Positions 11,821 through 58,487 of a DNA stretch of 60,340 bases are shown here, in pieces. The notes below the pieces were generated by a model, which ran no database searches, was not told the DNA's origin, and saw only the letters and a list, made by a program, of their open reading frames with translations. A program made the position numbers and the translations under genes. Origin of the DNA: Peribolospora baueri (lineage: Eukaryota); NCBI GenBank assembly GCA_029717555.1, contig JAMDHS010000042.1, forward strand, positions 124,001 to 184,340, in the 5' to 3' direction. The number at the start of each line of letters is the position of its first letter. Position 1 is the first letter of the stretch.

Positions 11821-12353
11821 TCGATTTGTTTGTTCTTTTTCTGCGCGCACTGTCGCGCCTTTTCGTGGAATGTACTTGTACGGGCCTGGCGTGCTACTAT
11901 GAGCTCCTACTCGTTCGGAATATGGCGCTGTATAGTGCCTTTGAGGGTCTGAATCACGTCTGTTTGGAAGAATATAATTGAGGACATGTATAGGAAGGAA
12001 CCGCTTACGTCAACAAGCAAGGCTTTAATGGGGTAGTGGTAACCTAGGACCTTGCCATGGTCCAGCCAGGGGTTCGATTCCCCTTTAAAGCAATCTTTTT
12101 TCTATTTTTCCGAATCTCCTCATTTAAGAGGGCTCTCTCAACTTTTCCTATGCCATATTTGAAGCCCATCTCAATGGTTGTTTTCCTAGCTATCTTCCTG
12201 TGTATCTTTTCCCTTCCGCCTTCGTCAGGAAGAGTCCGCGCATTTTCTGCTGCGGCAACCTCCCCTTATAGCGGCACGCCGATCACTTTCAGTGCCGGAT
12301 CTGCCAACGATCGCATCTACCACCATCTTGCCACATCCTTGCCCGAGTCAAAT

Positions 12354-13589
12354 ATGGTAAGGAAGTCCCTCATCTTAGGCTTTCACCTTCCCGTCGGCTT
12401 GTGGACACTCAGAGTTATCTGTCTTCTTCATCTTTTCAGGGTAATGACGGCGGCTCGATCCCCACGCGCATCGACCTCGTTCGCACCAAGGCAAAGTCGG
12501 AGGTGCTCGACAAGCGATCGGCTGTCGCTTACCTCTGGCTCTTCTGCTGCTTGTCCAAGCGGCTGCTTTCGGCTCCCGTAGTGAGCGATGCGCTAGGAAA
12601 GCTGTACAACAAGGAGGCTGTTTTGGAATGGATGGTGGACAGGCGGAAGTATGGAGATGGCGACGTGGTGGCCGGCCATCTACGGGGGCTCAAGGTGCGC
12701 TGCAGGTCACCTGTCTAGAACTACGTGATAGGTTGGACGAGCAGAAGGATTGATCGTGGTATTATTTTTTGTTCCCCACGTTTAACAGGACACGACTGAG
12801 CTCAAGCTCACCCCCAACCCTACATACCGTCCGCCCTCCCCGAACGACGCCGACTCGGACAAGCTTTCCTCGCCTTTCATCTGCCCTCTCACTTTCAAAC
12901 AGATGGACGGCAAGTACCGTTTCGTTTATCTTCTGCCTTGCGGCTGCACTTTCTCCGAAGCGGGCCTGAGACAGCTGCAGAGTGGCTCGACGGGCGCTGG
13001 CAAGCTGCCTACGCCACCAGCGGAGGAGGGTTCGGAGAAGGAGGGCAAGGTGCGGAGAGAGGACGCTGCAAAGGAGAAGGTGGCGTGTCCGCAGTGCGGG
13101 AAAAAGTACGACCCTCGGCTGTACGCAGACGGAGGGGACATGGTGACCATCAATCCACCAAAGGAGGAGCAGTACAAGATGAGGGTGACGATGGAAGGGA
13201 GGCGAAAAGAGGAGAAAAAGCGGAAGAAGGAGAAGAAGGCGGCCACAAACGGCTCTTCCGCTGACAGAGCGGACGGGAAGAAGGAGGATACTCCCGTAGA
13301 GCCACCGGCGAAGAAGGCGCGCGCCCTTTCTTCTACGCCCGTCAGCTCTGGCGCATCGACTCCGACGCTCTCCTCCAACACCGCCGCAGGTTCAGTCGCG
13401 CGAAAAGTGGCGTCATCCATGGCGGCCTCAGCTGACGCGCAGAAGAAGGCGAGGATGGCGATGGGACAGGACGTCAAGAAGCCTGTGTCAGCGGCCATCG
13501 CCGATATCTACGGCTTGACGGAGGACGGCAAGAAGAAGCCGGACGTGCACAAGAACAATTTCCTCACGCGTTCCACCTTTACTAGGTAA
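12354..13589 (+). CDS. RTF2: Replication termination factor 2 (Rtf2 RING-finger family)
   Basis: ATG (12354-12356), then intron 12357-12439, then GNDGGSIPTRIDLVRTK. Further motifs: SDALGKLYNKEAVLE, FICPL..MDGKYRFVYLLPCGC, CPQCG. Stop at 13589. Confidence 0.92.
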
Positions 13590-28002: not shown

Positions 28003-29424
28003 ATGGTGGACTACTACAAGGAACTCGGCGTGAGCAAGTCCGCCTCGCCCGAGGAGATCAAAAAGGCTTATAAGAAGGTGAGCTCGTCCGCCCCCCATCT
28101 CCCCCCCTGCCATCTTTCTCCTCATCGCTTCTCGCCCTTCTCTTTCAGGCCGCTTTGAAATGGCACCCGGACCGAAACAGGGACAAGCAGGAGGAGGCGG
28201 GCAAGAAGTTCAAGCGGATCAGCGAGGCGTTCGAGGTGCTCAGCGATGACAAGAAGCGACAGAGTGAGTCTTTCTCCCCCCGTCCTTTCCTAAACTACGT
28301 CCGCTGCCATCCGTCGTGACGGGGATGGATGGTAGACTGATGTTTCTTTCTTCCGTCGTCTTCGCTGCTCCACAGTCTATGACCAGTTCGGAGAAGAAGG
28401 CCTCAAAGGCGGCGGCCCGATGCCGGAAGACGCTGGCGCTGGCGGCATGGGCGGCGGCTTCCCCGGAGGCGGCTTCACCTCCTTCGCCTCTGGCATGCCT
28501 GGCGGCGGTGGACGCACGTTCACCTTCGCCTCTGGCGGACCCGGCGGCGGCTTCCACCCCTCCGATCCCAACGACATCTTCTCGCAAATCTTTGGTGCCA
28601 TGGGCGGCGGTGGGCCCGGCGGCGGCGGTGGAAAGAGGACTGGCGGCTTTAGTTTCGGTGGCATGGACATGGACGACGATGAGTCCCCGTTCGGTGGCGC
28701 CGGGGGAACGGGCGGTAGGCGACCCGGTGGGTTCGGTGGCATGTTCGGAGGCGCAGGCGGCATGCCTGGCGGCATGCCGCGGACGTCTCGCTCGGATCCC
28801 TTCGGAGGGATGGGAGGCGAGGGCGGCGGCGGTCGGGAGGCGGCCGACAGGGGTGAACCCCCGCCGATCGAGAAGCCGCTCCCGTGCACGCTGAAGGAGC
28901 TCTACCAGGGCACCAAGAAGCGGCTCAAGATTTCCCGAACGCTCCTGGGCGGGCGCAAGGAGGAGAAGATCCTCGAGATCGACGTCAAGCCGGGTTGGAA
29001 GAAGGGCACCAAGGTCCGCTTCGCTGGTGCTGGCAACGAGGTGGAGGAGTTTGGTGGAAAGGCACAGGACATTGTCTTTGTCATCGAGGAGAAGCCGGAC
29101 GACAAGTGGAGTCGTGACGGAGACGACCTGGTCACCACCTATCCCCTCCCGCTCCTCGAAGCCCTCGTGCCCCCCATACCGCCACCGCCCAAGACGATGC
29201 AACACATCGACGGAAGGACCATCACCGTTCCCCTCCCGCCCGTCACAGCAACCCGCAACGTCATCCAGAACGGCGCAGCGGTCCGCATTGCCAACGAGGG
29301 CTTCCCCATCACCCGCAAGGGCGCTACCAAGAAGCGCGGAGACCTCGTTGTACGCTACGAGGTCAAGATGCCGGAGCGCCTCACCGAGTCGCAGAGGGCG
29401 GGCGTGAAGAAGGTGCTCGGTTGA
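28003..29424 (+). CDS. SIS1: Type II Hsp40/DnaJ co-chaperone (Sis1/Psi1-like)
   Basis: [42 protein letters not shown]-domain, a G/F-G/M-rich region, and a C-terminal domain ([27 protein letters not shown]). No zinc finger. Confidence 0.9.
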
Positions 29425-29833: not shown

Positions 29834-33486
<3,653 letters not shown>

Positions 33487-33587
33487 GCCAACACTGAAAT
33501 GAAAGTGAAGAGTGGTGGCCGGTCGATGGTGGCGGTAGAGAGAAGTTAGCAGCAGCTGGTGATCGCGTGTCCGCTCCGTTCAGGATC

Positions 33588-35692: not shown

Positions 35693-37966
35693 CTAAAAAA
35701 CGACGTCCTTGCTGGCGTCATACGTGCACATGTCGCGCATCGCGCCGGGCACGGCGAAACGGGAGATGACGTCGGGGAGCGAGGCGAGCTGGAGGAGGAG
35801 ACCGGCGGCCATGTGCCATGCGATGTGGCAGTGGAAGGCCCAGACGCCCGGGTTGTCGGAGGTGTAGCGAATGACGGCGTAGGAGTACTCTGGGATTGTC
35901 TGGGTAAAGGAGAGAGGCGTGCTCAGCTCACACTCGCTGGTTGGATGGACGCGGAGGACGGGGGAACGTGCGGGGACTCACGATCGTATCCCTGCGCATC
36001 GGGTTCGTCCCCTTCAACGGCGTCACGCCCGGCTGATACATACCGGGCCCCTGAGCGAGGACCTTGAAAGTATGTCCATGAAGATGGAAAGGATGAGAGC
36101 AGTCGTCAAGGTTGTTCACCACCAGGTCTACGTCTTGGATCTTGTCGCTGGTCAGGATGAGCTGGCTTGAGTTGAAGACGGACGGGCCCTGTTGGAGGGT
36201 CGTCGTGGTCGCTCCCGCTGCTCCTCCACCGCCGCCGAAGCTGCGATCCATGATTTGGAAGAGCGAATTGGTGTTCATCAGGGGTGCCCAGCTGGTCTGA
36301 TTGAAATAGGCGGCAAAGGTGCTCAAAGGGGAGAGCTGGAAGGAAAAGTCGACGATGAAGCTCAGTGGCGCGGGCGAGGAGGGCGTGTCGATCGCTGCGT
36401 GGGGCACCAAGGCCGACGTGTTGAGGCTCGATGGTGAGCCGGGGAGAGAGGGTGGGGAGGCGACGTCTGCTTGCGGTGGCAGATCGGTCGTGTTTTGATA
36501 ACTGGAGTAGTAGGGAGGGAGATGAGAACAAAAAAAAAGAAAAATCCGCGGGTGGGCTCGAGGAGGACACGACTCACTTGACGGTACCGAGCACGGTCGG
36601 ATGGAGCCTATAATTGGTGTACTTGAAGCACGTCGTATCGATCTCTGCCCTCATCCAATGGGAGCCCTTGTCGCTCGACCCACCGCCCCTCGAGCCAGGG
36701 CCAATGACGACAGAGTACCTCTGTCCGACGCTCACGGTCACCTGGCTCACGTTCTGCGGGACGAGCTCGGTGCCGTCGGCCTCGATGGCGAGGAGGCTGT
36801 GGTCGTCGATGCTAAAGTGTACGTCTGCGAACGAGCCGGCGTTGACGAGGCGCACGCGGTAGCGCAGGGACGGGTCGAGGGTGAAGTTGAAGTACGAGCC
36901 GAGGGTGGGCGTGGAGGTGTCTGGAGCGGAGGAGGAGCGGCCGATGCCGTTGATCAAGCCGCTGTCTGGGACGGGCTCAAAGCCGGCGACACCATCGCCG
37001 CCGAGGTCATCGCCGGTGGCGGAGAGGTATTTGGCGATCAGGTAGTCGGACGAGTTGTCGTAGTGATCTGTGCGGGGTGAGAAGGCGTGACGGTGAGAAC
37101 GGGGTGAGAAGGCATGACCGTCGGTGGACGACGTCACGTCACCCACCGTTCATGACGACGAGCAGCTCTCTGTCATACATGTCCAAGAAGCTCTCTTGAA
37201 AGCTATGGATCACCAGGCCTCCGTACAAGCCGTCCGTGTACTGCCCCTGGGCGTGCGCATGCCACCTGAAGACAGGGCACGAAGGCGAATCCGATCGGTC
37301 AGACGGCACGGCACGGCCCGCTCGGGCGTGATGAACGACGCACCAATAAGTACCCGACTGTTTAGGATCGACAACCCAATCGTAAGTAAACTTTTGACCG
37401 GGGGGAATGAGACACTGAGTGATGCCATTTGTGCCGTCCATCCAGTTTGTTCCGTTTTGGTATTGACCGTGCCAGTGTATCGCTGTGCCATTGTCCAGCT
37501 GGTTGTAGACATCGACAACGACCCGATCGCCGCTCTCCACCTCGATGATCGGTCCCGGAACCTGGCCGTTGACGGCGAGAACTCGCTTGGGGGTGCCGTC
37601 GGGGGCGGCCCAAAAGTTGGTGATGGTCCAGTTGAAGTACCTCGTGACGCCCGTCTGTCCCTGTCCTCCTGGCTGAGCGACGGCGGAGGGACGGTAAGGA
37701 GGGAGGTAGAACTGGGAGACGTTAGTGAGCTGAGAGGCTGGTATGGGATTGTCGGGTGAGGAGCCGGGAAGGCCGGACGAGGAGGCATGGCGGTGCTTGA
37801 GACCGAGGCCGAGTCCGAGACCCAATGCGAGGGCGAGGACGACGATAACGACGAAAGCGACGGCCGCGGCGACGAGGAGGCCGAGGCGGGGGCGGCGCTG
37901 TGAGACGGGCTTCTCGCCGGCGCCGGCGGGGTCGTCCTTCTCGACGGTGGAAGAAGCGCCGGACAT
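35693..37966 (-). CDS. Multicopper oxidase (laccase-like) with N-terminal transmembrane anchor
   Basis: All four Cu-binding motifs are present: IHWHG, YW|WHAH, HPFHLHGH and GVWAFHCHIAWHMAAGL. N-terminal hydrophobic segment LLVAAAVAFVVIVVLALALGLGLGLGL. Confidence 0.93.
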
Positions 37967-38237
37967 GGCAGCGAGAGGGTGCGATTTCTGTTGGTGCCCT
38001 CGCTTAAATATGAGGTCCGTGCTTCTTTGTCAGTCTGTCTATCTCCCCTTCGTAGCTAAGCGGTTGGAGCGGGCGGTCAGCTGGGAGAGGTAGCTTAGAC
38101 GGCTGGAGCTCGTATGGGGGCGAGGTGGAGAGCTGGTGAGGAGAGAAGAAGCGAGGGAGGCTGCGTCGACGATGGGACGAGCGCGACGGGGGATGTCGAT
38201 ACGAAGGAGCGGCGAAGCGTCATTTTTGCCCGTCCTA

Positions 38238-39299: not shown

Positions 39300-41355
39300 A
39301 TGCTCCTCCACGCCTCTTTCGCTCTCCTCCTCGCCTCCCTCCTCAACACCGCCGGCGCAGTACCCGCCCCCGCTAACGTCGACGCCGCCCCCGCCCCTCG
39401 CTCCTCCCCCCTTTACTCCAACCAGAAGCGCGCTGTCACCGCCCCCTTCAAGGCTCCTTCCAACTCCCCGCTTGAGCCGAGCCCCAACTACGTCGGCCAG
39501 TCTAACTCGACGCTCAAGAACAGCCCCGTCGTGCCCGGAAAGGCTTTTGACCGCTTCCACCAGATCTGGCTCGAGAACAGTGAGTGCACCGCGTGCGACC
39601 TGCGCCCGTCCGAGTCCGACGCTCACACCACATCTCCCCCTCTGTCTCGAACAGCCGACTACGCCTCCGCCGCCTCCGAGCCCTCCTTCCAGCGCCTCGC
39701 CGCTCAGGGTATCCTCCTCGAGCAGTTCTACGGTGTCACCCACCCTTCCGAGCCTAACTACCTTGTAAGCTTCCGCCTCCGTTTGCTTCGACTCTTTTTT
39801 GCGGTCATTTTCAGCCGCTTTCCAAGCTCACACTGCTCACCCTCCTCCATCTTTGCCCTACGCTCCTCTCCTCAGGCCGTCGTCGCCGGTGACTTCTGGG
39901 GGTAAGTCCTCAATTTCCTATCCTAGACGTGTGGGCGAAAAAAAGCAAGGATTTGTGACCGCTGACAGCTCGTTCGCCTGCCCTCGCCTCCTTGCAGTGA
40001 TGCCGATGACAACTTCTACGCCGTCCCGAGCAACGTCTCTACTATCGTAGACCTGCTCGACCAGAAGTGAGTCGCATCGACCCAGATTTGTTCCTGTCGG
40101 CCTTGCCCGCCAGACCGACGTCCCCACTCACCACGCATCCTCGCACTTGCTTCTGCCCCGATCCAGGAACATTAGCTGGGCGTCTTACCAGGAGAACATG
40201 CCGTACGATGGCTTCGCCGGCTTCAACTTCGTGAGCGCCTTGCCCACGTCGCTTTCATGGCTCTCGTCGTCTATCTAACCCTGGCCTCCTCCACCCTCCA
40301 TGCAGTCCCAGCCCAACTACGTGTCCAACACGAACAAGCCCTACACCTACTACGTTCGCAAGCACAACCCCCTCGTCCTCTACGACTCGGTCGCCAACGT
40401 CCCCGCTCGCGCTGAGCGTATCAGGAACTTTAACGACTTTGCCGCCGACGTCGGTAACAACACCATCCCCCAGTGGACCTTTATCACGCCCAACCTGTGC
40501 GTCCGCCGTTTTGCTCCTTGGACGCCGTCGTGACAAGCTTGACGCCGTCGTGACATGCTAACCACCGGCGCTTCCTCCTCACAGTGTGAACGACGCCCAC
40601 GACACGACGATCACCTACACCAGCGCTTGGCTCGACTACTTTATGCCCAGCTTGCTCAACAACACCGCTTTCAACGACAACCGCACGCTCATCCTCCTCA
40701 CTTTTGACGAGACGGAGACGTACGAGACGAACAACCGCGTTTACACCCTCCTCCTCGGTGGTGCCATCCCTCAGCACCTCCGCGGCACGACCGACTCTAC
40801 CTTTTACACGTCAGTCCCGCTACTCCTGACTGCCGATCTCTCGCTAGACTGACCCTCGGCATCCCTTTCTTCCTTTGCAGCCACTACTCCGCGCTTTCGA
40901 GCGTCCAGAACAACTGGGGTCTCGGCAGCTTGGGCCGCCAGGACACGAACAAGACAGTGAGCAACGTCTTCTCGCTCGTCGCCAACGCCACCGGCTACCA
41001 CAACCTCGACCTCACCGAGGCCGAGTACCCGCTGCTCAACATCACCGAAACGATCCCGGGCCCGCTCAACGCGAACATGTACGTTCCTTACCTCGCCCCT
41101 AACACGAGCGCCGTCGGCGCTGGCGGTGGACCCGTGTTCGTCGGCCAGGGCGTCGACCTGAGCTTGAACGCGGGCTCGGCGCCGGCTCCTGTCAACCTCA
41201 CCGCGGAGGGCAAGCAGGTGCCCAGCGCGGTCAACCCCGCCACCGCCAGCGCGCCTGGCTCTTCCAATAACGCTGCCGTGGCTGCTTCCCCCGTTCGTTA
41301 CGTTTCCGCAGGCGTCGCTGCCGCCGCGCTCGCTCTCGCCGCTACTCTTCTGTAA
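39300..41355 (+). CDS. Secreted, probably GPI-anchored acid phosphatase (phosphoesterase family)
   Basis: Signal peptide; VPGKAFDRFHQIWLEN|TDY; GVTHPSEPNY; ISWASYQENMPYDGF; YVRKHNP; PQWTFITPNLVNDAHDT; TLILLTFDE; HYSALSSVQNNWGL; hydrophobic C-terminal tail (AGVAAAALALAATLL). Confidence 0.9.
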
Positions 41356-51873: not shown

Positions 51874-52161
51874 GCTTGTTTCTTGGGAGCTGTCGTCACC
51901 GTGGTGCCAGCGAGGCCTTTTGAACACAAGTTCGGTCAGATCGGACCCGCTGTGAGCAGTCGAGTAAGCAGCTCTTCGCTGGACAATCCCCACCCACCTA
52001 GCTTAGATTTACAATGAGTACGCTGCCTCCCAGAGTATTGAGCACGGTCGGACAGTGGATAAGTACGAGGAAATGGACCAGCTGGCACGACAACGGAGAC
52101 GTCGACTAACGGACCCTAATGGAAATATAACGGTCACGTGCCTGACGTCGATTAATTCGAC

Positions 52162-55100
52162 ATGCGATCGCAAGTTCCTCCACCACCGTCTCCCCTGCTC
52201 ACCACCATGAGTAGACCAGCGGACGTCGCTCAGAATAGTTCAGCTCAGACCTCCGACACTTCCTCTGTACATGCTGCTCTACTGCCACTGTCCGTCCTTG
52301 CGCTTTCGGATTCGTCTGATGCCGCACAAGCGTCGCGATCGCCCAACGGGACACTAGGTGCTGCCTCCGCCGATACATCTTCCTCTTCTGGCAGAGACCC
52401 TTTGACGAACCTCAATCATTCCGCTCAAGCTTCCTATCCCGCGGCAACGGAGTCTGAATTAGAGGAGGTGGCGGGTGGCAGTGGCACCTTTGCTTCGCGC
52501 TCTCTGTGCATTCTGTATGGCTCGCAGACAGGTAACGCGCAGGACGTGGCGGAGCGCGTGGCTCGAGAAGCCACGAGACGGAGGTTCGAGGTGCGGTGTC
52601 AGGCCATGGACGACTATGACAAGGTGAGCGGATCAATATGAGCCAGCAGGGGAAACGAGAGACTACGTACAGGTCATTCGCGTGGACAGGACCTGAAGTC
52701 GGCTTTATCTGATAAGCGCATTGAACGTCGGAAGACGAAGACGTTGATGGATTCGGCGCATCATAGCCGCCTTCGTAACGCGCACTTCGTTAATATTATA
52801 TTCTTCCCGAATTCGCTTCACAACAGTCTCTCCTCATAGACGAGCCCCTAGTTGTATTCGTCCTTTCCACAACCGGCCAAGGCGACGCTCCGTCGAACAT
52901 GCTTCGCTTCTGGCGGTTTCTCCTCCGACGGGATCTGCCCAGCGACATCCTCTCTGACCTGCGGTACGCGATCTTTGGACTTGGCGACACGAGCTATCCG
53001 AGGTACTGTTGGCCTGCCAGAAGATTGGATAAGCGGCTAGTTCAGCTGGGAGCACAGGCCGTCGTAGAGAGGGGCGAAGCGGACGATCAGCACTACTTGG
53101 GGTGGGTGGGTCGATGATTGCTATACAAAGTTGTTTTTCCTTTTTCTCACATAGGCGTCACATCTTCCTTCTGTAGCATCGACGGCGCGCTTGATCCGTG
53201 GCTCGTCTCTCTGTGGTCCCGATTATCCCAGCTTTATCCTCTGCCCGAAGGTGTCCAGCCGATACCAGACTCCGAGGTTTTGCCGCCTCGTGTCCACCTG
53301 CGCCTCCCAATGCTTGACTCCGACTCCAATCTCTGCAACCTTCGTTCCCGACCCGCCACCCCAGAACTCTCTTTCGCACCTAAGACTGGTTCAAGTCTTG
53401 TCAACGGTGGGCCGACGGCCCTTCCTCCAACCCCGCGCTCTTCCACCCGTGGAACGCCTGGTACCCCTATGACAGTCGATGGTCGTCCGGACACAGAAGG
53501 TGCACACGACCACCTGGAGAGGCCGACCCCTCCTGAGGGCATGCGCTGGGCCGTCGTCAAGGAGAACAGAAGGATCACTGCGCGGGATTGGACGCAGGAC
53601 GTTCGCCATGTCGAGCTGCAGCTAGAAGGAACTGAGTGAGTATGCAGTGTCTGATTTAAGATAATTGCCCGGGAGCACGGGGTCGTGCTCATCGCTCCAC
53701 CAATTTTCCCCTCATAGCCACCGACCAGGGGACGTCGCGTCTCTGCGGCCGGAGAACATGCCAGCGGACGTCGAGCGTTTACTGGAAACCCTCGGTCATG
53801 CGGACGTCGCGGACGTGCCATTAGATCTTCAATTGCTCGACTTTAGTGAGTTTCGTAGACACAGGTTGAGTTTTGCAGGTGCTGGGCGTGTCTGACCTTA
53901 CCTGAGCTTGACTGCCCTCATTCCTCTAGACCGGCCCCTCCCCAGATACTTCCCCCACCGACCAACCCTTCGTTATCTGTTCACTCGCTACTTTGACGCC
54001 TTCAGCGTTCCGCGCCGGTCTTTCTTTGAATGGATCAGGTACTTTGCCAAAGACGACGTGGAGAGAGAGAAGCTGGAGGAGTTTTGCAGCGCCGAAGGGC
54101 AGGTAAGCGTTGAGAGTCGTTGAGGCCTTTCCCTTTCAGTGTGGTCTCTGAACCTTCTTCGTCTTCTGCTTCTGCGCACGCGCACAAGGACGAGCTATAC
54201 CAGTACGCCCATCGGGTGCGCCGAACGATAGCCGAGGTCCTCGACGAGTTCCACTCGGTCGACATCCCGCTCGACTACCTCTTTGACGTTTTCCCTGAGA
54301 TTAGGCCACGGCAGTTTAGCATATCTAACAGCCCGAAGGTGCGTGTCCGGGCCACCGGTCGGTTCCGCTCTGGGGTCGTCCGCTTTGGAGCCGTTCATCT
54401 CCACTCACGTACATTCCTTCTTTTAAGATGTACCCGGATCTTGTGCACCTTACGGTGGCCATTGTCAAGTACAAGACCAAGCTCAAATTACCGAGGCGAG
54501 GCGTTTGCACCACATGGATCGCCCAGTTGAAGCCGGGTGAGCAGGTGGTCGTGCGGTCTCTAGGTCCTGGGATGAAGGATGTCGGCTGATTGTTCCATTT
54601 CCGCCGTTCCCGACATCGGCTTGTCTCGCCCAGGCGATCGCATCCCTATCGGCATCGAATCCGGGACGATGCACCTCCCTGCGTCAGCCCAGACGCCAGT
54701 GGTGCTCATAGGTCCGGGAACGGGCGTCGCTCCCATGCGCGCCTTCCTCCAGGACCGTTTTTCCTCTGGCTCGCTCGCCCCTTCCAACCTCCTCTTCCCC
54801 GGCTGCAGGAAAAGCGCGTGCGACTTTCACTACGCGGAGGAGTGGAAGGCATACGCCGTGGAGGAGCCGAGGCGGTTGAGGTACCATCTGGCTGCGAGCA
54901 GGGATCAGGAGGAGAAGGTGTACGTGCAGGATAAGATCAGGGAGTACGCCGACGAGGTGTGGGATGTTGTGGGCGTCCGAGGAGGCAGCGTTTACATCTC
55001 CGGGTGAGCGTCTCGGTGCCTGCTCCTGCCTGATCAGACTGGGTCTTGTCTCATCACTCCTTTCTTTCTTTCCTCTTTGAACGCGACATGCCCTGCCCTT

Positions 55101-55254: not shown

Positions 55255-55885
55255 AATGGTCGATAAGAAGGAGAGAGGGAGGGAGAGGGAGGGAGGAAAA
55301 AGACGATGCGATGCTATGCGGGTCGTGCGCGAAACACATATGTAGTGTCCTTCCTTCCTTCCTTTCTTTCTTTCTTTCTTTATGCAAGCATGTATGTACT
55401 CGAGCCAAAACGGCCGCCGAGCACGGACGGGCGTCTGAAGATGATCCATCCCAATCCGATCGCTAACTTGACATGACCGTACCTAATAAGACCGTCGGAC
55501 GACGGCCCACTCGAATCCTTGAATCCTCCCTCTCGTCCGACGGCTCTCTACGTTATCAAACGTACCCGGCCATCCTCGAACGAGTTCGAGTTCGAGTTCG
55601 CCGCCGCGGTAAGCGGCAACTCGGGTTTTCGCTCACATCGGTCGTTTCAACAGCTCGTTCCAGTCCATTCCAATCCATTCCAGTCCAATCTACTCCATTC
55701 CTCGCTTGCACGGGAAAGACGACGGCTCATGTATGCACACGCACTGGTATGTCCCATGGGACTGGCCACACATCCATCCACACGGGCTTCCCATCTCATC
55801 CATGTGCCAAGCTTCGCTTCGCTTCGCAAACGACAAAACCCTTCCACCATGCCATGCTCTGCGCTTCGGATCGATCCAGACGCGC

Positions 55886-57101
55886 TTAGAAGGCAAAGTC
55901 CTGGGCCAAGAGGATGTCGTACGTGGTCCAGATGGACGTCATCCAGAGGCCTGTGAGCGTGGGTGCGGACGGATCGGGCAGATAAGAGGAGGAAAACCAA
56001 GTCGGACGAGGTGAGTTCGGCCCTCTCTCCCCTGCGGCTCCTAGCTCGCCTGACATCCAATCGAATGCACTCACCGAGAATGCCAACGTTGTGGAGGGCG
56101 CCGCCGCGCGAGTTCCTCTGCGATGGGTTGCCGGTGGTGTATCCAATCGTGTACAAAATGCGTCCGACGATCCAAGCGGCGCCGAAACCAGCGGCGAGGC
56201 GTGGGTGCTTGAGCCCAGAGTAGAAGAGGCTCATGATAAAGATCGGCAGGGTCTCGAGGGTGTTATGGTGGGCACGCTGGGCGCAGTTGAAGACGTAGGC
56301 ATCCTTGCTCGCCTCGGCTTCGCTGATCATGGGCGAGAGAGAGAAGGAGCGAAACTGGGTTATGCTATTCGGCGGATGGATCACCCGCTCGCTCGGCCAC
56401 ACTCACGCCTTCTCAGCATAGAGTTGCGGGTAGGGGATCTTGGCCCTCTTGCGCGCAGCTACGACCTTTATCACCTGTTGGGTCATGGCCCCGGCGGGAG
56501 AGAGCGCGTCGAGCGGTGAGCTCGGACACTGACGAGACGAAGACGAAGACGGGCGGAAAACGAAAAACGGATGGGCACCTGGAAAGCGTTGAGGAAGAAG
56601 ACGCCGGTGGCGGCGAGGCCGACATAGCCGTACTGTTATGCGAAGGGGACGCCGGCGGTGAGAACGCAGACAGATGGGTCGCTGATGAGCGGCTATGGTT
56701 CACGACGGGAGAAGAGACAGGAACGGGTGACTGACCCTATTTAGGAACGCCGATCGGGGGATAAGATAACGTGCGAACGAGTGATGGGATGATCAAGAGT
56801 GAGCGCACGGCTTCGTCAATCACGACATGCGGCGGCCATCTGGCGTGTGCGACTGGCCCATCTCGCGCACAGTGCGGGGTGACGTAGCGCGAGCAAAGGG
56901 AGGGAGGCGTGGAAAAGGATAAAAGGTCCCTTCCGACGCCCGTCCCCATCGATCCCTCGCTTTCGCTTTCCAGTCAGTCCCGCAAACACCGTGCCCCTCG
57001 CCTCGCACGCGCCAACGTCCCCGAAGCCAAACGATCGGAAGGAGAGAAGAAGGAAGGAAGACTGACCCGGTGGGAAGGGCGGGGATGTTAACGGAGGACA
57101 T
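55886..57101 (-). CDS. MGST3: Microsomal glutathione S-transferase 3 (MAPEG family)
   Basis: Spliced: MSSVNIPALPTG-YGYVGLAATGVFFLNAFQ|VIKVVAARKRAKIPYPQLYAEKA|EAEASKDAYVFNCAQRAHHNTLE..AWIVGRILYTIGYTTGNPSQR..G|LWMTSIW..FAF*. The first junction needs one extra base (see findings). Confidence 0.92.
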
Positions 57102-57212
57102 GGTGGTATTCTACGTAGGTCGTTTATGTGGGGGAGGTGAAGGACGGGGGGGAGATGGAGATGGAGATGGAGATGAGAAGGACGGGGGGAGAATATCGAC
57201 TTCCGTCGGCGG

Positions 57213-57222
57213 TATATATATA
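57213..57222 (-). promoter_or_regulatory. TATA-like element upstream of MGST3
   Basis: TATATATATA-type run ~115 bp upstream of ATG 57101, followed on the minus strand by a pyrimidine-rich leader. Confidence 0.5.
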
Positions 57223-58487
57223 TCCTGGTCACCGCCGTCGGTGCTGGCAGCCGGACGACGACGCCCGCTCGCTCGCCTTCGAGACGCTTCTCTCTCTCTC
57301 TCCACGTCACTCTTTCCTCCTTCTAACACCACCTTGGCTTCTTCCCCCTCCCATCCCCAACTTCGGCTTCCTTTCCCCGTCCTGGTGACGCGTCGGCTAC
57401 ACCACACCGCCACTCGGCACCCACTCCTCCGCTCCCATTAGCATCGCCCGTCACGTGCACGCGGGTGTTACTTACGGCCGATGGGACGGGTGTTACGGTT
57501 GTGGGCGTCCAACGAACGGCGAGCAGCGAGCAGCGAACGAACAACGAACATCGAAGGTCGAACGTCTTCGCCACGTCCATCCGCGGCGGGGACGACCGTG
57601 TCCGTGTCCGTGTCCGTGTCCGAGGTGTCTCCTACAACAGCGCCGCTAGGCAATCGGACCATTGGGAGTGTACGACGTCCATCTCGCTCACCCTCGAGCC
57701 ATACCACACCACTCGACTCGGCTGTGGCACGTGCGCTGGCCTCCTCTTCGCCCGTCCACTAATGCCACCGCAATTTTCTCCCATCGTCCCTTGCAAAAGA
57801 GATGTCTCCTATTTCTTTTCCTCGCGCCGAGTCCATGACATTCCATGGCATGCGAATGAATGACTCCAAAAGAGGGCCGTCGCACGTGTCGTGTTGTCCA
57901 GCACACGCGACAGATGGGTATGACGAGACAGACGTTCCCAGAACCGGATGATGTCATGTCATTCTTGCCGTCATCCAAGTCATCATCGTACGTGAAACGT
58001 CGTGCTCGCCCATCATCGCCTAAGCGGCGTTGGCGTTGGTGAGGAGCCCCATAATTCGTTCGTTCCGCCGCTCGCTGAGCGTGTCGAATGGCGCTGCACG
58101 TGCCTGGCGTCTGTTCTGTTCTGTTCTCTTCTGTGCTTTGCTGTCCATATCTCAAGGGAGAAATGAGGACCAACGGTGCGGGGCGGGGCGGGCGAATGAG
58201 GATAGCATGTTCGTGTTCATGTTGACAAACGAACGTGTCGGATGGACGGACGACGGAAGGAAGGCCATGTGGGATAGATCGAGGGAGAGAGAGTGCGGAG
58301 AAGGATGATGATGAGTGCGTCCATCCATCGAGCATTCATTCGTCCGATCCATCCGTCCCTCGTCCATCTCTATTTCCGTCGTCCATCTCCATCGCCATCT
58401 CATCTTCCATCTCCTTCTTTATCTCCACCTCCATCTCCTTCTCTATCTCCTTCTCCCCCTCAACCCCCCATCCCCTCGTCTCCCAAA

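Follow-up and report, generated by a model that had tools for sequence, protein, structure and literature searches.

One-base exons are already described. Nelson and Syed (2026, PMC12940212) report a one-nucleotide exon in the Fusarium CYP621A P450 genes, documented by SRA reads, 20 orthologues and an intronless paralogue. For Coprinopsis cinerea, an annotation built on long reads describes exons of one to three nucleotides, including 13 one-nucleotide exons in 13 genes (PMC12230235). In Arabidopsis, APC11 has a constitutive single-nucleotide exon, validated with GFP fusions (Guo and Liu 2015, PMC4674806). The initial annotation of the DNA analyzed here had called such exons very rare; the published list is short, but a single basidiomycete contributes 13 of them, which tempers that statement (PMC12230235). 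A related arrangement is found in stwintrons, which are complex fungal intervening sequences excised by two consecutive splicing reactions; their external intron has one of its splice signals split by an internal intron, and no base is left between the flanking exons in the mRNA (Fekete et al. 2017, PMC5587772).

The window, that is, the whole stretch of 60,340 nucleotides analyzed here (Peribolospora baueri, contig JAMDHS010000042.1, positions 124,001 to 184,340), contains a MAPEG/MGST3 gene on the minus strand at 55886-57101. According to its open frames and our splice model, the gene has six coding segments including a one-base G, as follows.

57067-57101, minus strand: coding part of exon 1, from ATG 57101-57099 to ...ACC GG, ending in phase 2
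56737-57066, minus strand: intron 1, 330 nt, donor GTCAGT, acceptor AAATAG
56736, minus strand: proposed one-nucleotide exon G, third base of the Gly codon in P-T-G-Y
56633-56735, minus strand: intron 2, 103 nt, donor GTCAGT, CTCAC branch, acceptor AACAG
56579-56632, minus strand: exon 2, 54 nt, phase 0 to phase 0, YGYVGLAATGVFFLNAFQ, beginning TAC GGC TAT GTC
56475-56578, minus strand: intron 3, 104 nt, weak donor cag/GTGCCC (0.2 bits)
56407-56474, minus strand: exon 3, 68 nt
56323-56406, minus strand: intron 4, 84 nt, donor GTGAGT (7.5 bits)
56075-56322, minus strand: exon 4, 248 nt, MAPEG core with the FNCAQRAHHNTLE motif
55951-56074, minus strand: intron 5, 124 nt, donor GTGAGT (10.5 bits)
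55886-55950, minus strand: coding part of exon 5, stop TAA at 55888-55886

The Pfam MAPEG profile (PF01124) matches window positions 55650-56402 on the minus strand with 71.8 bits (cut-off 23.4, E 7.6e-20), and the invariant alignment columns of the FNC-x-QRAH-x-NTLE core are all present in exon 4. When compared with nine fungal proteins (those with E <= 0.001 among 123 candidates), exon 4 is 57-67% identical to seven of them and 48-50% identical to the other two. The closest named relatives belong to the Microbotryomycetes, and several are titled MGST3 or [quoted passage not shown]. The matches listed in our protein searches included no protein of the window's own genome. The full model with the one-base exon encodes 156 aa, compared to about 146-157 aa for the family. 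Its ATG (57101) is the first past the ATATATATATA run (57223-57213), in the context CCACC-ATG, and the N-terminus encoded by exon 1 fits the family pattern M-x-x-x-I/L-x-L/V-P-x-G. All five real exons have positive codon scores. The locus is best explained as a fungal MGST3-type MAPEG gene of a Microbotryomycetes-like basidiomycete, and its product is predicted to be a microsomal glutathione transferase from the profile, the core motif and the length.

Exon 1 ends in phase 2 at 57067 and is directly followed, after ...ACC GG, by a GTCAGT donor (57066-57061), while exon 2 begins in phase 0 at 56632. A direct 57067-56632 join results in a frameshift with stops after about 30 codons. Between the two exons, the minus strand reads TAG (56739-56737), G (56736) and GTCAGT (56735-56730), and we recovered every feature of this layout at the place where the initial annotation had put it. 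A branch-like GCTCAC (56804-56799) lies 63 nt upstream of the TAG with no AG in between; this is farther than in the other introns of the window (16-41 nt, judged by eye), and intron 1 has an alternative branch in CATCAC (56786-56781), at a distance of 45 nt from the AG. In intron 2, which is of typical length for the window, the CTCAC branch (56662-56658) lies 26 nt from the AG. The AG-G-GT string is flanked by complete introns, though its acceptor scores only -0.4 bits, and its G would reconcile the two phases and restore the conserved protein. We infer with good confidence that G 56736 is a one-nucleotide exon between two canonical introns, through which the MGST3 frame is restored.

The locus resembles the CYP621A case in that a fungal nuclear gene carries an AG-G-GT string whose G completes a Gly codon in a conserved motif, and in that the exon was spotted via a phase mismatch across an interval unusually long for the introns of the species (PMC12940212). 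By contrast, CYP621A is a P450 gene of Ascomycota whose G is the middle base of its codon, whereas here the G would be the third base, a reading drawn from sequence and one relative (PMC12940212). Like the Coprinopsis genes, ours is a basidiomycete gene, and there, too, leaving out such exons breaks gene models; Coprinopsis belongs to another class, the Agaricomycetes, and its 13 genes were compared by count only (PMC12230235). APC11 likewise has a one-base exon between two canonical introns that is required for the frame, but in an experimentally validated plant gene (PMC4674806). The interval would share with stwintrons the need for two consecutive splicing reactions, but its splice signals are intact and one base would be kept (PMC5587772). 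We did not retain the stwintron interpretation: its definition requires an interrupted signal, whereas the two GTCAGT donors and the two AGs are all intact here and the base is needed for the frame. Among the best literature matches, no MGST3/MAPEG gene with a one-base exon was found. With the proposed MGST3 exon, the published examples would extend beyond Agaricomycetes and Ascomycota. It implies no new mechanism, and its value lies in annotation and in offering RT-PCR a clean test case: gene finders cannot place a one-base exon, so the MGST3 model would come out truncated or frameshifted, or with an N-terminus that was made up. The case also favours the idea that fungal splicing, when intron-defined, tolerates any exon length.

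Donors were scored with a model derived from 56 coding segments of the window, which had been delimited by a codon model trained on frames with Pfam support. Between each segment and its neighbour, the GT-AG pairs compatible with the frame were weighted by EM from uniform weights, yielding 26 junctions, with the MGST3 gene left out of the set. This approach replaced a loose intron census, open to every GT-AG pair whose flanks were open and mildly coding, in which 372 candidates in 70 clusters gave no donor motif. The EM consensus of the 26 junctions was G-T-G-A-G-T (+3 G 0.82, +4 A 0.71, +5 G 0.97, +6 T 0.75) and the donors selected scored 5.4-13.9 bits. EM tends to sharpen motifs; the unbiased subset consists of the six junctions with at most four candidates, which carry GTGAGT, GTGAGC, GTCAGT, GTGAGC, GTGAGT and GTGGGT, with a G at +5 in 6/6. 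The procedure also selected GTCAGT for an unrelated 71-nt intron at 40810, where only four candidates exist. For the interval between exons 1 and 2, the scores are the following.

57066, minus strand: donor GTCAGT of intron 1, 7.8 bits, top 2.0% of the 6775 GTs of the window
56735, minus strand: donor GTCAGT of intron 2, 9.3 bits, top 1.2% of the 6775 GTs of the window
57062, minus strand: rival donor GTCTTC, -8.4 bits, with 85% of the 6775 GTs of the window scoring the same or better

The acceptor of intron 2 scores 6.7 bits (top 3.3% of window AGs), while the score of the intron 1 TAG is reached by 21% of window AGs. Since the acceptor of intron 3, which is fixed by homology, also scores just -0.3 bits, the acceptor model discriminates poorly. 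A TAG acceptor occurs at 2 of the 26 junctions (read off the list by eye), and the 330 nt of intron 1 compare with a median of about 90 nt for the introns at these junctions (judged by eye).

From exon 1 to exon 2, 176 in-frame GT-AG routes exist, 170 with two introns and 6 with one (12 single-intron routes if GC donors are allowed). Among the 170 two-intron routes, the one-base route alone combines two GTNNGT donors. The weaker of these scores 7.8 bits, compared to 3.8 bits for the weakest donor of the next-best route, and the one-base route is the only one of the 176 with all donors inside the range of the organism. The runner-up routes, whose weakest donors reach at most 3.8 bits, would add 10-65 residues.

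The spacing of conserved residues was then compared with that of homologues. A profile search that scored 8000 candidates gave 867 proteins with E <= 0.001. The best 120 of these were taken, and 115 of 123 proteins, those of 140-165 aa, were aligned with both the one-base model and a model using the GTCTTC donor. These homologues are mostly gene predictions, from many genomes, and are mutually consistent. The P column and the aromatic column are two residues apart in 114 of the 115 and five apart in one; the one-base model has two (P-T-G-Y) and the GTCTTC model three. A G stands right before the aromatic residue in 52/115. Exon 2 aligns without gaps, and the distance from the aromatic residue to Q is the same in 113/115.

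We also compared the window, over 56500-57200, with Logan contigs from four DNA runs of one study (X1 to X4), skipping 57141-57200 as a repeat. The X1 and X2 contigs, possibly from the source sample (depth about 95), show no difference over 56500-57140. X3 and X4 represent a second organism, roughly 93% alike (depth 65-93), with one contig each spanning 56500-57125 and differing from the window by 22 other letters and 37 gap letters. No difference was listed at 57002-57079 or 56719-56775, and the second organism keeps the GGG, the TAG-G-GTCAGT and the branch-like GCTCAC (56799-56804). In its exon 1 the sole change is an in-frame insertion of 9 nt behind 57080, and its exon 2 has one substitution. 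The introns have 20 substitutions, 15 of them in intron 1, together with indels of +6, -9 and +5 in intron 1, of -4, -2 and +1 in intron 2 (none a multiple of 3) and of +1 in intron 3. This amounts to 1 substitution and one in-frame indel in 89 exonic bases versus 20 substitutions and 7 indels in 537 intronic bases. The AG-N-GT string is thus kept in one close relative, where most of the neighbouring intron sequence is likewise unchanged; the other metagenome loci are distant. Together, the donor scores, the homologue spacing and the conservation in the second organism argue for the core reading of the initial annotation, in which a 1-nt exon would rebuild MGST3.

The most direct alternative is a single intron of 430 nt running from tca/GTCTTC at 57062 (phase 0) to the AACAG acceptor at 56633. 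It would be in frame, giving ...P-T-G-S-Y-G-Y-V, one intron would suffice, and the same gene does use a weak donor elsewhere (that of intron 3). The GTCTTC donor, however, falls far below the range of the organism, with a 7.8-bit donor 4 nt upstream and a 9.3-bit donor within the would-be intron, and the spacing of three that it produces was seen in 0/115 homologues, which makes this route very unlikely. A larger middle exon within 57066-56737, for example 56955-56871 or 569xx-56809, could instead be inserted, adding 10-52 residues between P-T-G and Y-G-Y-V. Several in-frame routes would allow it, and both indels of the second organism that fall there (+6 and -9) are multiples of 3, unlike the five others in its introns. 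Yet the second donors score at most 3.8 bits, four of the five candidates have negative codon scores (the 31-nt one reaches +0.06 bits/codon), third codon positions take only 2 of the 8 second-organism substitutions (phase arithmetic by hand), and none of the 115 homologues has such an insertion. The read-through frame of intron 1 has a negative codon score as well. The initial annotation had judged a longer middle exon unlikely; we consider it even less probable than the GTCTTC route.

A different possibility is that in both organisms the gene does not function or is largely unproductive, 57066 being joined to 56633 with a frameshift and the AG-G-GT being coincidental. Productive splicing is indeed deduced from sequence, and two acceptors compete for one donor. 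On the other hand, the other exons are intact, in frame and endowed with the invariant residues of the family, and exons are far better conserved than introns between the organisms. As for the coincidence itself, 65/5000 dinucleotide shuffles of the interval contained an AG-N-GT, at least 45 nt from either end, whose donor reached 7.0 bits or more (160/5000 for donors of at least 5.4 bits). We give this reading as little credit as the GTCTTC route. The initial annotation had also left an escape route through a homopolymer assembly error, in which four true Gs would leave one ordinary phase-0 intron. No simpler fix exists, and some sequencing platforms are prone to errors in runs of G. The G count at 57066-57068, whose verification the initial annotation had proposed, was checked on contigs rather than raw reads: GGG is present in the X1, X2, X3 and X4 contigs, hence three Gs in both organisms, and a collapse of four to three in two organisms is unlikely. 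Moreover, the strong internal donor at 56735 would remain regardless. An assembly error is the least probable of these explanations, and a one-nucleotide exon remains our preferred reading.

With this exon, introns 1 (GTCAGT...TAG) and 2 (GTCAGT...CAG) would be removed separately as canonical U2-type introns, and G 56736 would be retained in the message, completing the Gly codon to give ...L-P-T-G-Y-G-Y-V.... Both introns come with a donor, a branch-like element and a first downstream AG of their own, so that recognizing them one at a time would be enough, with no need for exon definition. Intron definition is the usual mode for short fungal introns. In the recursive (ratchet-point) splicing of long Drosophila introns, removal of the upstream piece regenerates a 5' splice site for a second step. 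Similarly, removal of intron 1 would regenerate a near-identical donor, G/GTCAGT, beside exon 1, with one base kept. Classical ratchet points leave zero nucleotides and lie in very long introns, whereas the MGST3 case would involve one base and introns of 330 and 103 nt. The "recursive-splicing-like route" suggested by the initial annotation is therefore a fair analogy, in which the order of removal is conjectural; either order would give the same message. Its proposal of an on/off splicing switch is speculation: skipping the G would give a frameshifted message, and we saw no sign of regulation.

The starts of introns 1 and 2 (57031-57068 and 56702-56737) share GGGTCAGTC and about 28 pyrimidine-rich bases. 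Out of 465 pairs of intron starts, this pair is the most alike (score 28, next 22, mean 12.3, sd 2.6). Local duplication of a donor (5' splice-site) module is possible but unproven. A more elaborate scenario, which we regard as improbable, would make the one-base exon a fossil of intron gain: the GGGTCAGTC module would have been duplicated one base upstream of the original donor, creating tandem introns removed in a stepwise, recursive-like manner, with acceptor competition setting the level of productive MGST3. Other origins were rejected. Intron 1 is not a full duplicate of intron 2, as similarity beyond the first 40 nt stays within that of shuffles (at least 151/400) and the 3' ends rank 171st of the 465 pairs. 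For an origin by target-site duplication, we reasoned that collapsing the GGGTCAGTC copies leaves three Gs and thus an ancestor out of frame. Nor is intron 1 a repeated element: blastn against the window returned itself and eight matches of 13-26 nt (E 0.06-0.68).

A metagenome scan gave 79 loci. Apart from L001, none exceeds about 55% identity in its best segment, and identity is 45% or less over most of the length of the query. The four loci with several tblastn HSPs including an N-terminal one (L045, L047, L057 and L060), all related to Agaricomycetes proteins, have their first 24-45 residues within one HSP and therefore no intron at this site. L001, a metagenome contig of 1176 nt, encodes P0001, the closest protein relative among the matches listed (67% identical over exon 4). 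It has an uninterrupted frame of 157 codons, without a poly(A) end, and the same two-residue N-terminal spacing. The contig represents either an assembled transcript or a gene lacking introns.

At its start, intron 1 has 65 nt (57002-57066) that are unchanged in the second organism, compared to an intron average of about one change per 20 nt; this may reflect chance (about 4%) or a constrained intronic element. A search of Rfam over 55500-57500 gave no match at E up to 1, and hence no known snoRNA or RNA family in intron 1. In intron 3, whose junction is fixed by homologue spacing and by the 1-nt insertion behind 56557 in the second organism, a decoy GTCAGT (4.6 bits) is found at 56533, in frame and 45 nt downstream of the used donor. 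Its use would add 15 residues in the region of the first membrane helix, which makes it a candidate alternative 5' splice site; the homologue spacing and the same 1-nt insertion argue that it is not used productively. Immediately upstream of the ATG lie a CTCCAT-type repeat tract (57141-57200) and the ATATATATATA run (57213-57223), which probably correspond to the core promoter and 5' UTR.

Five neighbouring genes were recognized in the window by Pfam on open frames.

52156-55004, plus strand: NADPH-P450-reductase-like gene (Flavodoxin_1, FAD_binding_1, NAD_binding_1)
35702-37975, minus strand: multicopper oxidase
29892-33579, minus strand: DEAH-box helicase (HA2, OB_NTP_bind)
28030-29421, plus strand: DnaJ protein
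12272-13586, plus strand: Rtf2 RING-finger protein

All five have short introns with GTGAGT-like donors.
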